64,000 nucleotides of DNA from a virus (lineage: Duplodnaviria; Caudoviricetes), in the IMG/VR virus record IMGVR_UViG_3300024270_000002; one strand, 5' to 3'. The translations under genes and the position numbers were made by a program. The notes under the pieces were generated by a model. That model searched no databases. It saw only the letters and a list, made by a program, of their open reading frames with translations, and was not told where the DNA came from. Positions 3,198 through 45,646 of this stretch are shown here, one piece after another. Positions within the stretch are counted from its first letter, which is position 1. Each line of letters opens with the position of its first letter.

Positions 3198-3575
3198 ATG
3201 TCTAACAGAATAATTAAATTTAACCGAGGTGACTCATACGAGTTTAATATTAGGATTCCTGATAAGTCAGATCGTACTAAAAATTATATCTTACATGAGG
3301 ATACCGATGTAGTTTATTTTGCAATAATGTTTCCACATCAGTCATTTGAGCATGCTTTTTTAATACAAGGATATACCTTAGAAGACCAAGATCCAGCAAC
3401 GGGCGAAATTACTATTAAGTTAGTACCAAAAGACACAAGAAGTATTATGCCTGGCGTTTACTATTATACCGTTAAACTACAAATAGGTGGAACACCTGGT
3501 ATCATTAATGACTTTGACGAGCCGGACGAAGTAAGAACAATAATAGAAAGAACAAAATTTATTATATATGACTAA
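3198..3575 (+). CDS. Virion structural protein, BppU-like
   Basis: RGDS...I.L.P.DT...PG.YYY.V.L pattern; follows tail genes. Confidence 0.5.
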   Translation: MSNRIIKFNRGDSYEFNIRIPDKSDRTKNYILHEDTDVVYFAIMFPHQSFEHAFLIQGYTLEDQDPATGEITIKLVPKDTRSIMPGVYYYTVKLQIGGTPGIINDFDEPDEVRTIIERTKFIIYD

Positions 3576-3663
3576 ATTTCAAAAGTTTTTATTGTATATA
3601 ATAAATATATTTATTAATTAATAAAGTATATTATATATTATTAAATATATTATATATTTATTT

Positions 3664-3700
3664 AAGGACGTAAGAATTTAACTTGCGTCCTTTTCTTTTT
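3664..3700 (+). terminator. Rho-independent terminator
   Basis: aaggacgtaag/cttgcgtcctt hairpin plus T-tract. Confidence 0.8.
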
Positions 3701-3809
3701 CTTAAAAATGTTTTTGAGATGCTGCCAAAATATTCTAAACGACATTGTATTATATAGTAAGCTGTAAATTACAGACTCAAAAATATTAAATTTTTTAGGA
3801 GAAATTATT

Positions 3810-6800
3810 ATGAGAAATTATGAGACAAAGATTTATGACTATGTAGACAAGAAGACTGGTGCTCACATTGTAAAGGCTACTACGATGTACGCCGGTAAGA
3901 CTGTTAGTGCTTATTCTAAGTGTGATCCGAAGGATAATTTTGATCTTAAGTTTGGTACTGACGTAGCTCTTAAGCGTCTTGACATTAAGATTGCTCAGAA
4001 GCGTGCAGCAAGTATGACTACTTATGCAAAGTTTTGTAAAATGAATCTCAAATCTATTGAGCAAGAAAAACGCCGCACAAAGAAAGCTATGGAAAGAGCT
4101 GAGATTGCCGCTCTTGACCGTAAGGCGGAAGCAAAGGAACTCGAGGCAGAACTTGCTGAGATGCTTAATAATATTTAAATATGGAAGAAAAGAAGTTTAT
4201 AGGACGTATTTGCCCAAAATGCGGTGCACTATATACTGAACATCAGATTGCTAAAGCGCATCTTGCCTCCGGAGCACAGGTAAATATGTCTTGTGAAAAT
4301 GGACACAAGTGGTCTGAATTCTATAATCTTGATTATCAAGGTTATTGGTGGGATGGAAAAATGTACGATTCATATGGAGAGGAAAAGAAAAAGGAGGATT
4401 AAGCTATGATTCTTAGAATTACTGTTGGTGACAATGACTTTACGGAAGAGCTGGAGCAGTTTGCAAACGACCCTGATGGCTGTGCTTATTTGTTGAAGGC
4501 TTGTGCACCAGATAACATCAGACTTACACAAGACGAAAAGCTTGTTCTTTTTAAAGAGGCTGATCGTTTCAGAGACTTATTTTATAATACGGATAAGTAT
4601 ACTCCCGCTCTTGCTGGTGAGCTTTGTGAGAGAGTAAGAGAAAATTGGGAAAACTTCGTAAACTACGTTATGAAGGACCATGAGTGGTGGACTGACGAAG
4701 ATAAAATTAGAATTAGAGAGTATCTTATCAGAGATTTTAAGGTAAAATTTCAGAAGAGCCTTACCCCGAAGTGGGAAAATGGAGAAGTAGTTTATATCTG
4801 TTGTGGTTATCATAACAAACAGTGGACGTTTTAAGGAGAACCTTATGAGCTGTAGATTTTGTGAGAATAACAGAACAAATCCTGAATGGGAACTCTCTGA
4901 AGAGCAATGCTTTTATGCAATGACTATCGGTGATGCTGAAAAGGGTTATCGTATTATGTTTAATAAGGAACCCTACAGACCACTTGAAATTGAATTTGAC
5001 AAGTGGAATGAGAAGCTTCATCCGCCTATTTGGCAAACTATGGGAGTTTATTATCCAAAGTTTTGCCCTGAGTGTGGACGTAAAATCGATGAATATGATA
5101 GGAGTAAATTTGACTGATGAGTATTAACACGGATAGCTTAAGTGCCTTTATTGAGGACCGTCTTTCTTGGGAACTTTCTGCTTTTGATGATATTAATGTA
5201 GGAGGCCTTGCAGAAGATATTGCTTATGACCTTAAGAGTCATGGTTATTGTTCTGAGCCTTATTTCGCTTATGAAAAAGCTCTCCAATGTTCTATTAATA
5301 AACGAGGCGAAAAGTATTGCAGCTGTACAAGTTGTGAAAGTCATGAATTTTGTATGCTTTTAAGAAAAGAGGGGTATATTCATGGAACGAATTGAAGTGC
5401 CTGCAACGATTTATTGGAAGTCTAAGCATGGAAAGAAGTTTACTTCCAAAGAGGATTGTGAAAAGTATGAACGGCTTTTCGATAAGTGGCAGGTTCCTGA
5501 GCTTTATCGCGAATTTGAGAATGTAGAAGGTCAGCTTTGTTACGCTTATTGGATTGTGTCGAAAGAAGAGCTTGATGAAGTTATTTGGCTTACGTGGCGG
5601 AGACTTGATACTTCCACTTGTAATTATGTTTCTGTAGATAACAGAATATTGGAGCCACAGTGGATTATTGTCTGTCCTGGATACAATGAATACAGTTCTG
5701 AGATGGCTATAAGAACTATGAAGGATTTTCGTGAAGAAATTGATGATATAATCAAGGCTGCGATTGAGACAAATGAAGCACTTGCTAAGCTTATTTGGGA
5801 GAAAGCTTAATATGGAAGTAAATAATGTACTTATCAAAGCAATTAAAGAAAAACGCTTGGCTGATTTTAAACAGCAGCTTGATGAAATTTATAATTATGT
5901 AGCTCGTACTGAGGAAACTGCTGACAAAGCATTAGCAACAGTACGAGATTGGAATAAAGATTCTGAGATTCAGAAATTACAGAAAGAGCTTCGTGAGCTT
6001 AGATCTAAGATCTATGATGACTTTACTTTGACCACCGATGAGCATGCTGAAATTATTGATTGGCAAAATAAGCATATGGAAGCTAAACATAAAAACAAAC
6101 GATATGTTCCTTGGTCTTTTGAGTTTACACCAACAGGACTTGGTCTGGTTGGTTGTTGTAAATGTAATGAGTGCAATGAAGAATTTATGTTTAGGGAGCC
6201 TTGATTATGTTTAAACTTGGAGAGATTATTCCTAGTGAAGGTCCTAAGGGTACTGAATATTACATTGTAGTAGAAGATGGACATAGACCTTTGCTCGAGC
6301 TACTTGATGATTATATCATGCGCTGTCGTACGGTACCTTATGAAGGTGAGTATTGTACGTTAAGAGAAATTGTAGAGCGCGAAAAACAAAGAATAATTAG
6401 TAAAGGATATATAAATGTTTAAAAGTATTAGATTTTGGTTTACTGATAGATCTAAACATAAGCAGTGGAAGCGATATGCGAAGCGGCAGAAGGCATATCG
6501 TAGGAAGCTCGTAAAGCAGGCTAAAGAATTTTGTCCTTGGTCAGGCTGGTATATGCATGAGATGATGAAGACTATGCTTGAGTTTTATAATAAAACTTAT
6601 GAAGCAGGTGATTGTTGTCATAGTACTGAAGAGCGAGTAAAAAAGATTGCTGCTCAAACAAGAAAAGCTTTAGAATACGCTGAAGACCTTGATACTTATG
6701 AAGATTTGAGCGAGGAAGAGCTTCTTGCTATGGCTGAGAAGGAATACGGTTTTAGAAAGTACGTAGAAAAATGGGAAAAGAAGACTGGGATCAAGGCTAA

Positions 6801-7468: not shown

Positions 7469-8398
7469 ATGGCAAAGTTAATTATTTTATGTGGGCTTCC
7501 TGGTTCCGGAAAAAGTTATTATGCTGAGCATTTCAAGCTTATAGATGATACTTTTTATGACGGTGCTACAGTTATTCATTCATCTGATAATATCAGAGAG
7601 GAGCTTTTTGGTGACGCAGGCTCTCAGGAAGATAATGGTAGAGTATTTGAGCTTATGCGTAAGAGAACTCAAGAAGACCTTAGAGCCGGCAAGACTGTAA
7701 TTTATGATGCTACTAACGTTACCAGAAAGGCTCGTAAGTCTGCTATTGCTTGTGCTCATCCTACTAATGATACTATAGAGTGTCATGTAGTATGGGCAGA
7801 TCCTGAGGAGTGTATCCGTCGTGACGGCCTACGAGACCGTAAAGTAGGTCCTGCAGTAATTGATAAGATGCTTCGTCGCTGGCAGAGTCCTTGGCTTGAT
7901 GAAGGCTTTGATAAAGTTGAAATTCATCTAAATCAGCACGATTTTGACCAGGTTAGATATGTTGCTAGCATGACTTCTGATATGCATATTCCTCATAATA
8001 ACCCTCATCACAAGCTTGGAGTATGGGAACATTGTATGCAGGCTTATAATAATATTGTAGTAAAGCATAAGGATACTAAGCATATTTTTAATTCATTGGC
8101 TGCTGCAGCTTTTTGGCATGATATTGGAAAGCCTTATACTAAGTTTTTCAAGCATGGTGAGGATATTGCTCACTATTATGACCATCACTGCGTTGGAGGC
8201 TACCTAGCTTATGGCTTGTTTTTGAATCCTGATCATCACTTACTGCGTGATGTGGAGATGGACAATATTTGCTTTATTAGCTGGATGATAGCTAACCATA
8301 TGGAACCTTTCTTTGATTCTAATTACTATAGAGACCTTAATCCCAAGTGGAAGTGGTATATCGACGCTATCCACGAGGCAGATCTTGCTGCGCATTAA
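7469..8398 (+). CDS. Polynucleotide kinase (AAA_33 P-loop) fused to HD phosphohydrolase; RNA end-healing enzyme
   Basis: GLPGSGKS, SSDNIREEL, YDATN; HD domain HH...EH...HDIGKP...H...H...D. Confidence 0.85.
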   Translation: MAKLIILCGLPGSGKSYYAEHFKLIDDTFYDGATVIHSSDNIREELFGDAGSQEDNGRVFELMRKRTQEDLRAGKTVIYDATNVTRKARKSAIACAHPTNDTIECHVVWADPEECIRRDGLRDRKVGPAVIDKMLRRWQSPWLDEGFDKVEIHLNQHDFDQVRYVASMTSDMHIPHNNPHHKLGVWEHCMQAYNNIVVKHKDTKHIFNSLAAAAFWHDIGKPYTKFFKHGEDIAHYYDHHCVGGYLAYGLFLNPDHHLLRDVEMDNICFISWMIANHMEPFFDSNYYRDLNPKWKWYIDAIHEADLAAH

Positions 8399-8478: not shown

Positions 8479-8534
8479 GAGCCTATACTTATTTCTCAAC
8501 ATATTCTGGAAAAATATTTTTTGACAGTTAGGCC
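8479..8534 (+). ncRNA. Bulged-helix Y-RNA-like motif, copy 1
   Basis: GAGCCTATACTTATTTCT...AGTTAGGCC immediately upstream of the TerD-domain gene. Confidence 0.7.
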
Positions 8535-8629: not shown

Positions 8630-10612
8630 ATGACTGAACTTCAGAACATTCTTATTGCTCGTCGTATGCTCGTAGCATCTGATTATAAGGATGCTTATAA
8701 CCCTAATCTCAAGATTGAGAAGGCATATATTAATGCTTTCCTTCTTTCCAACTTCGGTATCGTTGTAGATAAGCCTGAGCTCCTTACTAAGGAGATGGTA
8801 AAGGATATCTCCGATATCTATAAGCTTGAGGTTCCTGCTTCTTATTTCAAGAATCCTCAGGACACCCGCTTCTATACTGCTGAGGAGCTTCTCGTTGAGC
8901 AGTGCGTATCGTATTTCCTTGCTTACGGTGCCGAGGATTCTCATGTTCATGTATTTGATAAGGAGCTTCCTTCTTATCCTGTAGGTGATGAGATCAAGAT
9001 CCGTGAGTTCCGTATCCTTAGCTCAGACGAGGCTCTCGCAGAGCTTTTGGCTATCACTAAGGCTTACGCCGCTTATAAGCGTCCTTGGGGCCTGGACGAG
9101 ATCAATGAGTTCCTTACTCTTTATACTAAGGGCTTCTATCGCTTCACTGAGATGCCTATTCTCTGTGGTGATAATGCTGTAACTATGCTTGATCATAATA
9201 CTGATTTCGGTCAGTTCTTGTTCAAGAAGGACGTAGTAAAGCTTTCTGTAGCCAAGGCAGGCGAGAAGAAGGAGCTTACTCTTGACCCTGAAACCCGTAG
9301 ACTTATTAAGGCTATTCTCCCTCTCGTGAAGGATTGTCCTATGTCTAAGAAGCAGGCGAAGTATTTCAATAAGCTCGTCCAGATCACTGGCGTGAACGTA
9401 AAGAAGACTTCTAATGCTTGTTCACCTAACAAGCTCGCTCTCGAGGAGCTTAATGCTGGTAATGTTCTTGACGCCGCTGAGATTTTCGCTAAGTCTGGCT
9501 CTCTTCTTGAGCGTAACCTCAAGTTCCTTCTCTCCAGAGCTAATCCCGTTGAGGCAGTAAAGATTCTCGATATGCTCTCTGACCAGAACCCCACTGTTCT
9601 TTATCAGCTCATGTCTACTATCACTGCAGATACTGAGGATGCTCGTACCTTCTCCTTCTATGCTAAGAACAAGATCAAGACTCACGTTGAGACTGAGTAC
9701 GAGGCACGCTATAGAAAGTCTCGCCTTAATGACGCAACCAAGAAGCTCGTCCATGACGTATGCTTTAATAAGATTGCAGGTCATTATCAGGCAGCTGAGA
9801 AGCTTGGAAAGGTTTACATCGATCCTAAGTTCTATCGTGTTGCAATGCCCGTAAATACCTCTGCTTCTGGTAAGGGTATTGATGTTCCTGCCACTGGTAC
9901 TCGTCTGCCTATTACCGGTACTAAGATTCGTTCTTTTGTACACTGGGAGAAGGCGTTCGATATTGACTCTTCTATTGTTCTCGAGCATGAGGACGGTAAG
10001 CTTAATACCATCAACTTCTGCAGCTACCACGACAGAAACTACAATGGCGCTGCTCGTTTTTCTGGTGATATTACTGGTCCTCAGGGAACTGAGTACTTCG
10101 ACCTTGATCTTGAGTCTCTCAAGAACCAGGGTGTGAAGAGAGTAGTATTTACCTTCCACGGTTATTGTTCTACTCTTAACTCTGGTGAAATCTACTGTGG
10201 CTACCAGAACAAGAAGGACTTCAATACCAAGGCTTGGGATCCTAAGAATATTGAGCTTAAGATCCATGTTAAGGGTGAGAAGCGTGCCTATGTGGCGTTT
10301 GCTGTCGACCTCGAGACTATGGAGATTGTAGTACTCAACCTTATGCGTGATGATGACTCTCGAGTTGTTTCTGCTAAGGACTTTGAGTCTATCAAGGCCT
10401 TCATGGATCCTGCAAAGCTTGAGCTCAATATGGGTCTCATTGCTGAGTGGCTTGCGACCGAGGTAGTAGAGAATCCTACTGAGGCAGACTATGTGTTTGC
10501 AGATGATTATACTACTCCTATTAACCTTCAGGATGAGAACGGCGAGCCTAAGGTTCAGACCGTAATCAGATCCTTCGACGTCGAAAAGCTTAACGAGATT
10601 GCAAACGTTTAA
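8630..10612 (+). CDS. Large protein with helical N-terminus and C-terminal TerD-like domain (putative ROT/TROVE-TerD, Ro60-like)
   Basis: C-terminal DIDSS...FSGDITG...EYFDLDL...VVFTFHGY is TerD-like; SGSLLERNLKFLL resembles the PGxfxRxLdxLLR motif of this family; SD ggagg at 8617; strongly biased codon usage. Confidence 0.6.
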   Translation: MTELQNILIARRMLVASDYKDAYNPNLKIEKAYINAFLLSNFGIVVDKPELLTKEMVKDISDIYKLEVPASYFKNPQDTRFYTAEELLVEQCVSYFLAYGAEDSHVHVFDKELPSYPVGDEIKIREFRILSSDEALAELLAITKAYAAYKRPWGLDEINEFLTLYTKGFYRFTEMPILCGDNAVTMLDHNTDFGQFLFKKDVVKLSVAKAGEKKELTLDPETRRLIKAILPLVKDCPMSKKQAKYFNKLVQITGVNVKKTSNACSPNKLALEELNAGNVLDAAEIFAKSGSLLERNLKFLLSRANPVEAVKILDMLSDQNPTVLYQLMSTITADTEDARTFSFYAKNKIKTHVETEYEARYRKSRLNDATKKLVHDVCFNKIAGHYQAAEKLGKVYIDPKFYRVAMPVNTSASGKGIDVPATGTRLPITGTKIRSFVHWEKAFDIDSSIVLEHEDGKLNTINFCSYHDRNYNGAARFSGDITGPQGTEYFDLDLESLKNQGVKRVVFTFHGYCSTLNSGEIYCGYQNKKDFNTKAWDPKNIELKIHVKGEKRAYVAFAVDLETMEIVVLNLMRDDDSRVVSAKDFESIKAFMDPAKLELNMGLIAEWLATEVVENPTEADYVFADDYTTPINLQDENGEPKVQTVIRSFDVEKLNEIANV

Positions 10613-10746: not shown

Positions 10747-10899
10747 ATGGATAAGTTTGTTGAAGAGATTACTAGAGATTGCTTTCTTGAGGATATTAAC
10801 CGTAGATATAATAAAGAAACGGTTGATACTATTATTGAGGCAGTAGAGCATCCTGATACCTTACATAAGCTTACTTCTTGGGAGGAGCTTGGGCTGTGA
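10747..10899 (+). CDS. Short antitoxin (DinJ/RelB C-terminus-like, 50 aa)
   Basis: MDKFVEEITRDCFLEDINRRYNKETVDTIIEAVEHPDTLHKLTSWEELGL; GTGA overlap with toxin start; not in ORF track. Confidence 0.55.
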   Translation: MDKFVEEITRDCFLEDINRRYNKETVDTIIEAVEHPDTLHKLTSWEELGL

Positions 10900-11192
10900 G
10901 AGAGATTTTATACACCAGTACTTTTTCTAAAGATTTAAGAAAGGTTAAGAGCTACCCTGCATTTAAAGCAGATAAGCTAAAGTCTTTTGTAAATAAGCTC
11001 GCAAATGGCGAGGCTCTTCCTGATTCTGCGAAGAATCATCCTTTGAGCAAAGTAAGCCCTAAGCATTATCGCGGAATGTATGATTTTCATATAGCTCCTG
11101 ATATTGTAGTAGTCTATAAGATGGATGATACAAGTATTTCTTTGATTAGGATTGGTAAGCATAACAATTTGGGTTTAACAGAAGATATTTAA
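10896..11192 (+). CDS. RelE/YafQ-family mRNA interferase toxin
   Basis: TSTFSKDLRK...LANGEALP...NHPL...DFHIAPDIVVVY...LIRIGKH; GTG start after ggagg. Confidence 0.85.
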   Translation: MREILYTSTFSKDLRKVKSYPAFKADKLKSFVNKLANGEALPDSAKNHPLSKVSPKHYRGMYDFHIAPDIVVVYKMDDTSISLIRIGKHNNLGLTEDI

Positions 11193-11228: not shown

Positions 11229-11244
11229 TATTGTATAATATAAT
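11229..11244 (+). promoter_or_regulatory. Recurrent TTGTATAATATA extended -10-like promoter (representative copy)
   Basis: Near-identical copies at about 3590, 11229, 18064, 22373, 23259, 25091, 26469, 27272, 29125, 31372, 35116, 40325, 41837, 46394, 59473. Confidence 0.75.
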
Positions 11245-11248
11245 ACAA

Positions 11249-11309
11249 GAGCCAATGCTTATTTCTGCTGCATAAGCACCAAACTTTTAATTTGTGATTT
11301 AGCTTGGCC
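11249..11309 (+). ncRNA. Bulged-helix Y-RNA-like motif, copy 2
   Basis: GAGCCAATGCTTATTTCT...AGCTTGGCC just after a TATTGTATAATATA promoter. Confidence 0.7.
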
Positions 11310-11332: not shown

Positions 11333-11445
11333 GAGCCAATACTTATTTCTAATGCTGGGAACTGTGTGTCGTAGGTTCAAATCCTACCTTGGCGACCATC
11401 GCCAAGTAGCTCAGTGGTAGAGCAATAGTTAATTATAGTTTGGCC
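11333..11445 (+). ncRNA. YrlA-like RNA: bulged-helix motif copy 3 enclosing a circularly permuted tRNA mimic
   Basis: Order is T-arm (gtagg ttcaaat cctac), closed acceptor (cttggcga cca tcgccaag), D-arm (gctc agtggta gagc); aactgt/atagtt stem. Confidence 0.8.
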
Positions 11446-11460
11446 TTAATAAAAAATATA

Positions 11461-11575: not shown

Positions 11576-11764
11576 GCTCCAGTGGTGGAATTGGCAGACA
11601 CCCGGGACTTGTTTGAATAGTTTAAAGGTAAAACAGGAAGCCTAGTACTGATGTATTGAACAAAACGAGGAACAGCATCCAGATGTGAGTTCGAGTCTTA
11701 CTTTAAGCACCAAAAATCCCGTGCCCTTCGGGGCGTACCGGTTCGAGTCCGGTCTGGAGCACCA
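11576..11764 (+). tRNA. tRNA-Leu(UAA) interrupted by a nested tRNA-like element (11611-11712)
   Basis: gctccag/ctggagc acca; cggga CTT|AAAA tcccg after removing the insert; long variable arm. Confidence 0.85.
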
Positions 11765-13447: not shown

Positions 13448-13522
13448 GGGTATGTAGCATAACGGTAATGCTAAGCTTAAAGTGACGTACGGATGCAGGT
13501 TCGAATCCTGTCATATCCACCA
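13448..13522 (+). ncRNA. tRNA-like RNA lacking a paired anticodon stem
   Basis: gggtatg/catatcc acca; intact D and T arms. Confidence 0.55.
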
Positions 13523-36484: not shown

Positions 36485-37030
36485 ATGTATAATACTGGAA
36501 TGATTATTGGCAGATTTCAACCGTTCCATTTAGGACATTCTATTATCCTTGACAAAGCGCTAGACCAATGCAATAAAGTAATTGTGGTAATTGGTTCTGC
36601 TCAAGAAAGTGGAACACCTTTAAACCCATTGTCTGCATCTGAAAGAGAACAAATTATTATAGATAGTTTTACGAATAGACTTGATTATGATAATCTTGAA
36701 AAAATTGAATTCCTGCATCTTAACGATAGAGAACATTGGTGCAATGATTCTTCTTTTGGAGAATATGTTATAAATGCAATCGAGCATACATACGGAGTAA
36801 CACCTAGCGTAGTATTTGAAGGAAAAGAATCTTCTCGTAATAGCTGGTTTGATACTATCGATATTGATGTAGTTCAGATATCAAGAAATAAATGTGCAGT
36901 ATCTGGTACTGAATTAAGAGAGGCTATTTATAATGGAGATAGAACTACCTGGGAAAATCAATGTGCTCCTGGAATTGAATATTGTTTTGATAGTATAAGG
37001 GAGGCGATATTAAATGCTACAAAAAACTAA
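36485..37030 (+). CDS. nadM: NMN/NaMN adenylyltransferase (NadM-like)
   Basis: IGRFQPFHLGH, IGSAQES, NPL...ER, SGTELRE. Confidence 0.85.
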   Translation: MYNTGMIIGRFQPFHLGHSIILDKALDQCNKVIVVIGSAQESGTPLNPLSASEREQIIIDSFTNRLDYDNLEKIEFLHLNDREHWCNDSSFGEYVINAIEHTYGVTPSVVFEGKESSRNSWFDTIDIDVVQISRNKCAVSGTELREAIYNGDRTTWENQCAPGIEYCFDSIREAILNATKN

Positions 37031-37766
37031 AGAGCTAATTACTTGGATTAGAGAACAGTTTAAAGATATTCCTGATGGTCATGCCATTATCGGTATTTCA
37101 GGCGGTAAGGACTCTACTATCGCTGCAGCGCTTTGTGTTGAGGCCTTGGGCGCTGATAGAGTAATCGGAGTATTAATGCCACAAGGCGTACAAAAAGATA
37201 TTAGTGATTCTTATGAAGTTGTTGCAACTCTTAAGCTTCAGTATCATGTTGTTAATATTGGAGCTGCCTGTGAAGAATTATATCGTTCTATTAGCGATGC
37301 TGTTTTTCTTTGTGGCGGTAAAAATGCAATAGAATCTAATTCTATGATTACGACAAATGCTCCGGCAAGAATGCGTATGACTGCTTTGTACGCTATTGCA
37401 GCACTTTATACTAATTCCCGTGTGGTAAATACCTGCAACGCATCCGAAGATTATGTTGGTTATTCCACTAAGTATGGCGATGCAGCTGGGGACTTTTCGC
37501 CTCTCGGTAATCTTACTGTGAGAGAGGTGCTTAAAATTGGGGATGATTTAGGCCTTCCTAAGCATTTAGTGCATAAGCCGCCTTCTGACGGTATGTGCGG
37601 TAAAACAGACGAAGATAATCTTGGATTTACTTATGAACAGCTTGATGACTATCTTTTGGGAACAGGCGATGTTCCGCTGGATGTAGTTGAAAAAATTAAA
37701 AAACTGCATAAAGCTACTCGACACAAATATGTACTTATGCCAATGTTTAATAATTTTAAAAAGTGA
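37014..37766 (+). CDS. nadE: NH3-dependent NAD+ synthetase
   Basis: GISGGKDS, N..ARMRM, GYSTKYGD, KPPSDG...TDE. Confidence 0.95.
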   Translation: MLQKTKELITWIREQFKDIPDGHAIIGISGGKDSTIAAALCVEALGADRVIGVLMPQGVQKDISDSYEVVATLKLQYHVVNIGAACEELYRSISDAVFLCGGKNAIESNSMITTNAPARMRMTALYAIAALYTNSRVVNTCNASEDYVGYSTKYGDAAGDFSPLGNLTVREVLKIGDDLGLPKHLVHKPPSDGMCGKTDEDNLGFTYEQLDDYLLGTGDVPLDVVEKIKKLHKATRHKYVLMPMFNNFKK

Positions 37767-37777
37767 GGAAAATAACT

Positions 37778-38977
37778 ATGATGAAGCTTAGTCCTATTAT
37801 TGTATCTTTGTTGGATACCGACCTTTATAAATGGAATATGTGTCAGGTATTCTTTCATAAGCATACCAATATGAATGGTAAGTATATTTTTAAATGTAGA
37901 AACGAAGGAGTAGAGTTTACTTCTGAGATGGTTGAAGAAATCAATGCTCAGATCGACCACCTCTGTACTCTTACGCTGACTGATGAAGAACTTGACTATC
38001 TCGCTTCTTTGAGATTTATTAAGAAGGACTATGTTGAGTTCCTTCGTATTTGGAGACCACTTCGCAGATATGTAAATTGTTTTTATGATGATAGTAGCCC
38101 CTGCAAGATGAGAATTGAAATCGAAGGGCCACTTTTCTCAGTAATGCAGTTTGAAATTTATCTTCTTGAAATTGTTAATGAGACGTATTTCAGAATGAAG
38201 TATGATTATATGCAGCTTGTAGAGTCAGCTAAAGACAGACTTTATTATAAGACTAATTCTTTTAGGCTGGAAGAATACGATTTTAAATTTGCTGAATTTG
38301 GTTGTCGAAGAAGACTTTCCAGAGAATGGCAGGATTATGTAGTTAGCGAGCTTCTAAAGACCGGCAAGTGCGTAGGCACTTCTAATACGTATCTTGCGAT
38401 GAAGTATGGTTGTAAACCCATTGGAACTTACGCTCATGAGTACGTTCAGATGTTCCAGGGAGTTCCTGGTATTCAGCTTGCGTACACAAATAAGGTTGCA
38501 ATGGAAGAGTGGTTTGATGAGTATCAGGGAGATAATGGAACTGCACTTACTGATACTCTCGGAACAGACCTTTTCCTTAGAGACTTTAACAAGCTTCAGG
38601 CAATGTGCTATACTGGAGTAAGACATGATAGCGGAGATCCTTATGAGTGGGGAGAAAAAATTATCGCTCATTATGAGAAGCTTGGAATTGACCCCAAAAC
38701 AAAGACTCTTCTTTTTAGTGATAGCCTTGATTTTGTAAGGGCTCAGGCCATCTATGATTATTTCAACAAAAGAATTAATGTAAGCTTTGGTATTGGAACT
38801 TATCTTTCAAATGACACTAATGTAAATCCTCTTAATATTGTTATTAAGCTTCAATATGTAAATGGTCACCCCGTCGCAAAGATTTCTGATAATCCCGGAA
38901 AGGCTATGTGCCAAGATGACTCCTATCTCGCATATTTGAAAAACGCAGTTGATTATAGATTAAAGGAAGGTATTTAA
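37778..38977 (+). CDS. pncB: Nicotinate phosphoribosyltransferase
   Basis: SLLDTDLYK, EFGCRRR, GTSN, GTYAHE, GVRHDSGDP, FSDSL, FGIGT, KISD.PGK. Confidence 0.95.
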   Translation: MMKLSPIIVSLLDTDLYKWNMCQVFFHKHTNMNGKYIFKCRNEGVEFTSEMVEEINAQIDHLCTLTLTDEELDYLASLRFIKKDYVEFLRIWRPLRRYVNCFYDDSSPCKMRIEIEGPLFSVMQFEIYLLEIVNETYFRMKYDYMQLVESAKDRLYYKTNSFRLEEYDFKFAEFGCRRRLSREWQDYVVSELLKTGKCVGTSNTYLAMKYGCKPIGTYAHEYVQMFQGVPGIQLAYTNKVAMEEWFDEYQGDNGTALTDTLGTDLFLRDFNKLQAMCYTGVRHDSGDPYEWGEKIIAHYEKLGIDPKTKTLLFSDSLDFVRAQAIYDYFNKRINVSFGIGTYLSNDTNVNPLNIVIKLQYVNGHPVAKISDNPGKAMCQDDSYLAYLKNAVDYRLKEGI

Positions 38978-43496: not shown

Positions 43497-43523
43497 AATT
43501 AAATAATGAAAGGCAATTATATT

Positions 43524-44315
43524 ATGGCAAATAAAAAAGATTCGCTCGGCGATAGAATGAAAGATAATTATGAAAATAGAGCTAAGACTTATCTTACCAG
43601 AAGGCTTCCTGTGGTGATCCGAATCGACGGCAAATGTTTTCATTCATTTTGTAAGAACTTTCAGAAACCTTATGACGAGGTTTTTCATAAGGCAATGAAC
43701 TCTACCTTGCAGTATCTTTGTAAAAACATTCAGGGATGTAAGTTCGGATACACCCAGAGCGACGAAATTTCGCTTCTGTTGACTGATTACGATACACTGA
43801 CTACAGATGCCTTTTTTGATTACAACGTGCAAAAGATCTGCTCTATTGCGGCTTCTATGGCTACTCTGCACTTTAATAAGGCTTTCAGAACTTATGTTAA
43901 TGAATATACTGCTGGTAAAACTCTTGATAGCTATTCTATTGAGTTACTAAAGGCCAAGGATAAGGGAGCAATGTTTGACGCTCGCTGCTTCAGCATTCCT
44001 GCATCGGAAACGTGTAACGTATTTATTTGGAGGCAGCAAGATGCGACTCGAAATGCTGTTCAGATGCTCGGGCAGACGTACTTTAGTCACAAGGAACTCC
44101 ATAAGAAGTCTACTTCAGATATCCAGGAAATGTTGTGGCAAAAGGGTATTAATTTCAATGATATGCCTATTGAGTTTAAGCGTGGTGTTTGCTGTTTTAA
44201 GAGAGCTATTGAGGTAAGAGGCGCAGCACGAACTGAGTGGTATATTGATAAAGAATGTCCTATTTTTACACAGGATAGAAATTATATTGAAAGATTTCTT
44301 CCCAAGGAGAACTAA
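43524..44315 (+). CDS. thg1: Thg1-like 3'-5' polymerase (tRNA-His guanylyltransferase family)
   Basis: RIDGKCFH, GYTQSDEIS, FDARCF, WRQQDATRN. Confidence 0.93.
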   Translation: MANKKDSLGDRMKDNYENRAKTYLTRRLPVVIRIDGKCFHSFCKNFQKPYDEVFHKAMNSTLQYLCKNIQGCKFGYTQSDEISLLLTDYDTLTTDAFFDYNVQKICSIAASMATLHFNKAFRTYVNEYTAGKTLDSYSIELLKAKDKGAMFDARCFSIPASETCNVFIWRQQDATRNAVQMLGQTYFSHKELHKKSTSDIQEMLWQKGINFNDMPIEFKRGVCCFKRAIEVRGAARTEWYIDKECPIFTQDRNYIERFLPKEN

Positions 44316-44875: not shown

Positions 44876-45646
44876 ATGAAGTTATTTTGTGTTTCAGATA
44901 TACATAGCTTTTATACACCGTTTAAAAAAGCTTTAGACGACGCTGGTTTTGAAAAAGATAATCCAACTCACTACCTTGTCAGCTGCGGGGATGTGCTAGA
45001 CCGTGGTAGCGAAAGCGAGGAAGTGCTCCATTTCCTGATGTCACTTGAAAGAAAGATCCTTGTAAAGGGTAATCACGATCTTCTTCTTGAAGAATGTTGC
45101 ATGAGAGAATTTCCGTATAGCTATGATGTATCGAACGGGACTGTAAAAACGATCAATGACATCGGCGGCGCTGGAGAAGGTTATCCTTTTGATAAGTGCT
45201 GTGAAAATACTTGGAATAGGACCGCCGCGTATCGAGCTTCACTTGTAAATTATTTTGAGACTGAAAATTATATTTTTGTTCATTCGTGGGTGCCTCTTAA
45301 ATGCTTAGACGACATGCCCAAGCATTATACTAAGAATAGACAGTTTGAATATGACCCTGAATGGCGTACTGCAGACAGAGATTCTTGGGAGCAAGCTATG
45401 TGGGGTAATCCTTTCGAACTTGCTGAGCGGGGACTTAATCATACAGGCAAAACTATAGTATTCGGACACTTCCATACGAGTTGGCCAAGAGCTAAATATG
45501 AGGGGAAGCCCGAGTTTGACGAGGGTGCGGATTTTTCATCGTATTACGGTGATGGTTATATTGCACTAGATGCTTGCACTGTCCATACCGGAAAAGTTAA
45601 TGTTTTAGTTATTGAAGATAATTTTTTAAATAAGGAAGGTATTTAA
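44876..45646 (+). CDS. Calcineurin-like metallophosphoesterase
   Basis: SDIH, GDVLDRG, KGNHD, FGHFH. Confidence 0.9.
   Translation: MKLFCVSDIHSFYTPFKKALDDAGFEKDNPTHYLVSCGDVLDRGSESEEVLHFLMSLERKILVKGNHDLLLEECCMREFPYSYDVSNGTVKTINDIGGAGEGYPFDKCCENTWNRTAAYRASLVNYFETENYIFVHSWVPLKCLDDMPKHYTKNRQFEYDPEWRTADRDSWEQAMWGNPFELAERGLNHTGKTIVFGHFHTSWPRAKYEGKPEFDEGADFSSYYGDGYIALDACTVHTGKVNVLVIEDNFLNKEGI

Follow-up and report, generated by a model that had tools for sequence, protein, structure and literature searches.

The window analysed here, a 64,000-nucleotide stretch of IMG/VR record IMGVR_UViG_3300024270_000002, is part of a large uncultured phage genome, and its plus strand carries nearly all of its genes. 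A tRNA array extends over approximately 11.4–27.2 kb of the window, with 31 tRNAs reported by ARAGORN, and Rfam places a GOLLD RNA at 25469–25989. The tRNA that ARAGORN calls at 13448–13522 has an anticodon of four bases (aaag) and an Rfam tRNA score of 46 bits. The subject of this work is a 113-base element at 11333–11445 on the plus strand. It belongs to a set of RNA elements that share a bulged helix, which we refer to as the scaffold, and the first two scaffold copies in the window (8479–8534 and 11249–11309) are flanked by genes for a polynucleotide-kinase-like P-loop kinase (Pnk-like; 7469–8398), upstream of the first copy, and a YafQ/RelE-family RNase toxin (10878–11192). Farther along the window is a gene for a Thg1-like protein of the tRNA 5′-end 3′-5′ polymerase family (43506–44315; Pfam E-value 3e-33), which by its sequence is a putative additional tRNA-repair capacity of the phage. 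A calcineurin-like phosphoesterase gene (44876–45646) lies near it, and an NAD salvage module (NAD synthase and nicotinate phosphoribosyltransferase genes) is found at 37014–38977. The predicted functions of the kinase, the toxin and the Thg1-like enzyme form a tRNA damage-and-repair theme around the element.

A conserved bulged helix carries different cargos

The scaffold consists of G1, a bulged A2, 5 bp, a bulged U8, 3 bp (RCU with AGY), a single-stranded UAUUUCU, the cargo, and a closing C. The first-pass annotation had described our element as cargo of a conserved bulged-helix family, and this description holds: the 18-nt scaffold motif occurs 8 times in the window versus 0.37 expected, position R9 covaries with its pyrimidine partner (ACU..AGU versus GCU..AGC) in 8 out of 8 window copies, and the element fits every part of the scaffold definition. 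The other copies are also on the plus strand. The one at 8479–8534 stands in front of the gene for a TerD-like protein discussed below, and the one at 11249–11309, directly upstream of the element, combines a small hairpin with a mimic of an anticodon stem-loop whose loop reads CUUUUAA (Lys-UUU type); this copy and the element are found in the same order in L016, L189 and G004. The copy at 25014–25069 carries a hairpin with a UUUGGGA loop (tRNA-Pro UGG-type), and four more lie in tandem at 26725–26780, 26799–26851, 26877–26951 and 26966–27064.

Beyond the window, the motif is present at 45 loci of IMG/VR viral contigs, many of the contigs being 90–237 kb long. The scaffold motif worked as a search probe, whereas an exact search of viral contigs with the T-arm/acceptor/D-arm junction gave no match. 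We extracted 83 unique closed scaffold copies, of which 16 enclose permuted tRNA bodies. Three of the 83 were automatically classed as normal-order tRNA-like, and two of these were confirmed (L011:657-761 and L018:2393-2503, the latter with a tRNA score of 61 bits). The other cargos are T-arm minihelices and plain hairpins, many with 7-nt anticodon-type loops (UUUGGGA, CUUUUAA). Among genome contigs, 120 motif matches were obtained versus approximately 140 expected by chance, and four real scaffold loci were found, in two MAG bins (Bacteroidales and Lachnospiraceae). The scaffold matched no Rfam family, and no account of it turned up in the literature that could be searched. As part of the reading developed below, to which as a whole we give slightly better than even credence, the scaffold would define an RNA family particular to phages, in which various parts of tRNA are mounted on the same handle, with our element as one cargo variant.

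The element is a tRNA body in permuted order

Direct reading of the element shows a tRNA body back to front inside the conserved bulged helix, with all parts on the plus strand. The scaffold 5′ strand (11333–11350; G-A-GCCAA-U-ACU-UAUUUCU) supplies G1, the bulged A2, the 5-nt stem strand, the bulged U8, RCU, and the single-stranded UAUUUCU. It leads into a cargo-proximal 4-bp helix, the 5′ strand of which (UAAU, 11350–11353) pairs with 11432–11435; an equivalent helix of 4–5 bp is found in L016:7844-7957 and L036:902-1018(-). [quoted passage not shown] A single nucleotide, U(-1) (11399), separates the CCA from the 5′ half, which comprises the acceptor 5′ strand with C1 at 11400 (11400–11406), U8 A9 (11407–11408), a 4-bp D arm with the loop AGUGGUA containing G18 and G19 (11409–11423), A26 (11424), and the 5′ strand of the anticodon stem (positions 27–31; 11425–11429). 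A 2-nt linker and the 3′ strand of the cargo-proximal helix then run to 11436, and the scaffold 3′ strand (11437–11445) closes the element with AGU, the complement of the 5-nt stem, and the final C.

The nucleotides that make tertiary contacts in tRNA are all in place (U8, A14, G15:C48, G18, G19, U54, U55, C56 and A58). RNAfold extends the acceptor to 8 bp over a CCA triloop (z = -2.6). ARAGORN makes no tRNA call on the element in its native order but does so once the halves are re-joined with any 7-nt loop. The first-pass annotation had placed a tRNA 3′ half ahead of its 5′ half, with the acceptor closed over CCA, and each of these parts is located as it claimed. The anticodon stem that it described is likewise real, but the proposed direct continuation of that stem into the motif helix is not: a 7-nt/2-nt internal loop, the 4-bp helix, and the single-stranded UAUUUCU intervene. 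The element is thus a circularly permuted tRNA-like module with the topology of the bacterial Y RNA YrlA.

Compensatory changes show that the permuted cloverleaf is under selection

To the pairing scheme we applied a set of 14 diverged permuted copies from uncultured large phages, with 500 shuffles and slid registers as controls. Standard pairs are found in 97.0% of cells, as compared with 76.4% for shuffles and 31–47% for slid registers, and 23 out of 29 pairs have changed on both sides in a compensatory manner. For covariation, the score is 0.632 versus 0.210, and none of the 500 shuffles reaches any of these measures. All of the tRNA stems contribute: the acceptor is paired in 97/98 cells, with double changes at 7/7 positions, the T stem in 70/70 (100% in the 14 copies; 4/5), the D stem in 55/56 (3/4), and the anticodon stem in 61/70 (5/5). 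The scaffold helix is 100% paired in the 14 copies, with double changes at 6/9 pairs. The permuted cloverleaf is real and under selection, and the tRNA body folds like tRNA.

These comparisons also bear on the age of the element, for which recent derivation from a real tRNA had been suggested. Instead, the acceptor stems differ at 4/7 pairs between phages, and because the element has been kept across phages through these compensatory changes, it must be both old and under selection. We found no close copy of it among the tRNAs of the window. In G009, ARAGORN calls a "tRNA-Gly with intron" across two adjacent permuted units; this call is an artefact, since the scaffold strands pair within each unit rather than between units.

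The element resembles tRNA-Pro but is not required as the sole tRNA-Pro

The element has a tRNA-Pro pattern (UGG anticodon, G37, A38, C1-G72 and A73) in common with the window's own tRNA-Pro. The loop GCUGGGA is identical in L016 and L189, and L036:902-1018 has GCUGGGG despite the change of 4/7 acceptor pairs. In L025:968-1087, the combination of G3:U70, A73 and GGC is instead an alanine pattern. Because the sequence AAUGC recurs ahead of non-tRNA cargos too, G32 C33 may be part of a sequence that marks a sub-family of the scaffold, which leaves five loop bases, C1-G72 and A73 as the basis of the "Pro" reading.

ARAGORN reported no tRNA-Pro in the window. We found, however, that 21132–21276, which it miscalls as Leu(cag) with an intron, is a tRNA-Pro(UGG) interrupted inside the anticodon loop, the orthologue of which is intact in G009. 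The insert is 67 nt long, is tRNA-shaped from +1 to CCA, and ends in ACCA. The tRNA-Leu(UAA) at 11576–11764 is also split: a unit of 102 nt, tRNA-like from +1 to CCA (Rfam tRNA score 39 bits), lies between positions 34 and 35, and its own anticodon arm holds a further 39-nt insert.

We considered whether the permuted unit is simply the phage's missing tRNA-Pro. This was ruled out by the interrupted gene at 21132–21276 and by the co-occurrence of both forms in other phages: whereas the window combines the permuted Pro-like unit with an interrupted tRNA-Pro(UGG), both G004, a close relative in which a neighbouring protein is 92% identical, and G003 have the permuted unit plus an intact tRNA-Pro(UGG), and G009 has the intact tRNA-Pro(UGG) with the permuted unit absent. 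Since G004 and G003 carry the conventional gene intact, the permuted unit is not required as the only tRNA-Pro.

Sealed and openable acceptors

The permuted copies fall into two groups according to how the acceptor is closed. A sealed acceptor, capped by a loop of UUCG type, TGCA type or 3 nt and devoid of CCA, is found in 10 out of 14; L013:3546-3658 is a sealed copy. Given UUCG-type or 3-nt caps and the absence of CCA, the sealed copies are not ordinary tRNA genes. In the openable copies, which include the window element, a gap comes after A73-CCA, and its last nucleotide is always U(-1). Gap length is 1 nt in the window element and in L016 and L189, rising to 2 nt in L036:902-1018 and to 6 nt in L025:968-1087. 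In two further Pro-like permuted units, G003 4107-4285 (-) and G002 237103-end (+), the gap after ACCA contains an entire nested scaffold copy, which bears a hairpin with a UUUGGGU loop.

The same signals mark the conventional tRNA genes of the window, 29/31 of which encode CCA and 28/31 of which have T(-1), against a T background of 28%. That CCA and U(-1) are kept across lineages with quite different acceptor sequences suggests that they are in use. Since the openable copies retain the processing signals of the phage's own tRNA genes, they are probable substrates for nicking by RNase P, with the cut in our element predicted at 11399/11400.

A TerD-like protein is a candidate partner

The gene that follows the first scaffold copy (8630–10612) encodes a 660-aa protein that is 75–100% identical across hundreds of phage contigs. 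It had no match among Pfam or PDB sequences. Structure comparison (Foldseek, VIA-align) assigns a TerD fold to residues ~427–588 (Z 14.0, rmsd 2.5 Å, 145 residues aligned), and the helical N-terminal half, which is poorly modelled, matches only non-specific helical repeats (Z ≤ 6.4). With that half so modelled, no Ro60, ligase or capsid fold was among the matches listed.

A scaffold copy lies ~100–150 nt upstream of the TerD-like gene in the window and in 4/4 distant relatives that have the gene; G001 has one scaffold copy but lacks the gene. It is because of the copy ahead of the gene in all four of these relatives that we name the TerD-like protein as a candidate partner of the scaffold, a guess from synteny.

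The element as a proposed tethered tRNA mimic

We are inclined, somewhat more than not, to see the element as a scaffold-tethered tRNA-Pro-like mimic, probably openable by RNase P, that serves as a bait or adapter. The phage would produce a small RNA of ~113 nt in which an L-shaped body derived from tRNA-Pro(UGG) is permuted and mounted by its anticodon stem, with both RNA ends in the bulged helix. This handle may stabilise the RNA, bind a common phage protein (the TerD-like protein being the candidate), or both, and the covariation shows that the mounted body folds as a tRNA does. A nick by RNase P between U11399 and C11400, followed by trimming of one U, would expose the CCA end, and the scaffold and stems would hold the two halves together, by analogy with Mycobacterium smegmatis YrlA and the two-piece tmRNA. 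The extra helices at the anticodon arm would bar the tethered body from the ribosome. In this way it could engage tRNA-binding factors as a bait or adapter, the most plausible of them being defence enzymes of the host that target tRNA, or enzymes that handle tRNA.

Two known types of RNA come close to this arrangement. The two-piece tmRNA (RF04321/RF01849) is a bacterial and phage example of a permuted tRNA-like domain, in which, as summarised where Keiler et al. (2000) is cited in PMC3978253, processing opens the acceptor gap and exposes the CCA while the pieces stay paired. Our element differs from it in having a full D arm and anticodon stem, and it has neither G3:U70 (its 3:70 pair is C-G) nor a tag reading frame; neither ARAGORN nor Rfam called a tmRNA in the window. 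The cultured Rhodobacter phage RcXuper (L093 3031-3564; OP186293.1, about 3216-3749) has a permuted two-piece tmRNA gene, and directly after it we noted an unannotated T-arm/closed-acceptor/D-arm core that scores 40.7 bits with the YrlA model. This core is 82.5% identical to our element over 62 nt.

The second type is GOLLD, the linker of which holds tRNAs (Kretsch et al., 2025, PMC12286853), so that there too a tRNA body is covalently tethered to a larger phage RNA beside tRNA islands. Whereas GOLLD forms cages and is 500–800 nt long, the carrier in our case is a 40-nt helix. The window's GOLLD itself contains a second permuted tRNA (~25548–25650), in which the T arm and acceptor 3′ strand lead to G73-CCA, and a gap of 45 nt whose last nucleotide is U(-1) precedes the acceptor 5′ strand and the D arm.

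Comparison with circularly permuted tRNA genes

A real, chargeable tRNA would also be consistent with the conservation of the CCA and with identity elements that agree with one another (Pro here, Ala-like in L025:968-1087). The main rival to the tethered mimic is a true circularly permuted tRNA-Pro(UGG) gene, in which the paired leader and trailer would be the signal for cutting and ligation, the ACCA-U gap would be opened by RNase P and 3′ trimming, and a translating tRNA would result; we consider this rather unlikely. As in the permuted tRNA genes of Cyanidioschyzon merolae, green algae and Thermofilum pendens, the 3′ half is upstream, a gap at the acceptor end is available to RNase P and 3′ processing, and the leader and trailer pair beside the anticodon region. 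The layout has a direct precedent in T. pendens, where an encoded CCA and a 1-nt gap are reported for one permuted tRNA (Soma 2014 review, PMC3978253), and both here and in the Ala-like copy the identity elements match the anticodon. The tRNA-shaped insert in the conventional tRNA-Pro also speaks for such a gene: that inserts of this kind interrupt tRNA genes implies an RNA ligation route of some sort in these phages. The Pnk-like kinase is a near neighbour of the element, and Rnl1 is found in 2/5 relatives and RtcB in 1/5, although a distribution as patchy as this counts against the idea as well.

Several features are difficult to reconcile with excision and re-joining. The bulge-helix-bulge (BHB) motif of permuted tRNA genes is absent, the large bulges of our element both being on the 5′ strand with different helix lengths. 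The splicing-endonuclease family (PF01974) was found in 0/5 relatives, while archaeal controls were positive, and the setting is a bacterial virus; no tRNA-splicing endonuclease is known from bacterial hosts. Joining the halves, either way, leaves no canonical U33, the junction position varies from 28/29 to 31/32 among the copies, and the distance to the scaffold also varies. Furthermore, most family members are sealed or hold only tRNA fragments, and G004 and G003 have an intact tRNA-Pro(UGG) in addition. We are equally doubtful of the broader form of the proposal, in which the phages would provide the first case, beyond archaea and algae, of circularly permuted tRNA genes: RNase P would open the gap, an unknown endonuclease would remove the helix, and a phage repair ligase would seal the product, the same route splicing the inserts out of tRNA-Leu and tRNA-Pro.

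A possible role in transcript punctuation

The scaffold could alternatively serve as punctuation, either as a stabilising helix or as an RNase site for the tRNA-array transcripts and the TerD-like mRNA, with the cargos as incidental captures. Its copies do lie where transcription units begin and in between blocks of tRNAs, as well as ahead of the TerD-like gene in 4/4 relatives, and a promoter-like site ends at 11244, 5 nt before the copy at 11249–11309, although our promoter scan, like the terminator scan, performed no better on the window than on shuffles. RNase P together with RNase Z would also free the normal-order cargos of L011:657-761 and L018:2393-2503. An incidental cargo, however, would not maintain 23/29 pairs by compensatory change, nor would we expect CCA/U(-1) or UUCG caps to be kept in separate lineages and anticodon-type loops to appear in the small cargos. 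We therefore regard punctuation as an improbable account of the family.

Comparison with YrlA and other bacterial Y RNAs

The YrlA model (Rfam RF02553) aligns over its full length at 11349–11452 with 39.2 bits (E = 1.7e-6 in 2.5 kb) and thereby confirms the order T stem-loop, acceptor-like stem-loop, D stem-loop; the topology that the first-pass annotation proposed is thus borne out, and the tRNA tertiary nucleotides are also those of YrlA. Family membership did not follow from the same search. The gathering threshold of RF02553 is 69 bits, nine relatives score 34.6–43 bits, all below it, with matches driven by the tRNA-like core, and the model's outer stem is misaligned with the real closing helix of the element.

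As in YrlA (Chen et al., 2014, PMC4201824), the opened anticodon stem runs into a long helix in which both ends of the RNA lie, and the T arm, closed acceptor and D arm follow one another in that order. RNase P cleaves the M. smegmatis YrlA, whose acceptor is 7 bp long, and CCA is added to that RNA (PMC4201824). Our element, by contrast, has its CCA encoded in the genome as part of the loop, keeps an anticodon-type loop of 7 nt, and sits on a handle of another kind, the bulged helix with UAUUUCU, which is strongly conserved. The motif GNCGAA(N)G, which in Y RNAs binds Ro60 and lies in the 5′ strand of the Ro60-binding helix (PMC4201824), is absent from the scaffold 5′ strand of the element when searched for as GNCGAA(N0-1)G. 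The related phages also differ from YrlA carriers in that no rsr/TROVE gene was found in them as gene or neighbour: TROVE (Ro60/rsr) searches were negative for the 30 window ORFs scanned, for five relatives that are 95–100% complete, and for RcXuper, whereas control genomes, including Bacteroides-type ones, gave matches.

A genuine Y RNA of the YrlA kind, with its bulged helix bound by host Ro60/Rsr and an exonuclease recruited, would account for the topology, for the full-length model alignment, and for one handle with varied modules, and the control match indicates that Bacteroides-type hosts can encode TROVE. Against it stand scores of 35–43 bits versus 69 in all copies, the misaligned outer stem, the missing motif, and the negative TROVE searches, and we find it very unlikely; the earlier suggestion that the bulged-helix family consists of Y RNAs is accordingly one that we do not retain. 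Judged by sequence and model scores, the element appears YrlA-like in layout but not a member of the YrlA family.

Finally, a decaying, functionless remnant of two tandem tRNA-Pro genes is hardly credible: the ACCA-T-C1 junction looks exactly like the head-to-tail junction of the phage's tRNA genes, but the covariation across diverged phages largely refutes this explanation, the scaffold flanks are exact, and the relatives, which the first-pass annotation had named as the place to look for plain tandem tRNAs, never have them at this locus and always have scaffold-flanked permuted units. The resemblance of the ACCA-U junction to those of the phage's own tRNA genes does make a tandem origin in the distant past likely.

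Implications for phage biology

Selection maintains, in large phages of the gut and rumen, a family of small RNAs with a shared handle on which complete tRNA bodies or parts of tRNA are displayed. The only bacterial RNAs known to have such a layout are defined by the Ro protein, which these phages do without. If the tethered-mimic reading is correct, these RNAs would represent a new, RNA-based route by which phages reach tRNA-binding enzymes, for example host anticodon nucleases or toxins that modify the CCA end, and this route would stand alongside the phage tRNA arrays and repair enzymes. If the element is instead a permuted tRNA gene, then both permuted tRNA genes and protein-dependent re-joining of tRNA would extend to the viruses of bacteria.
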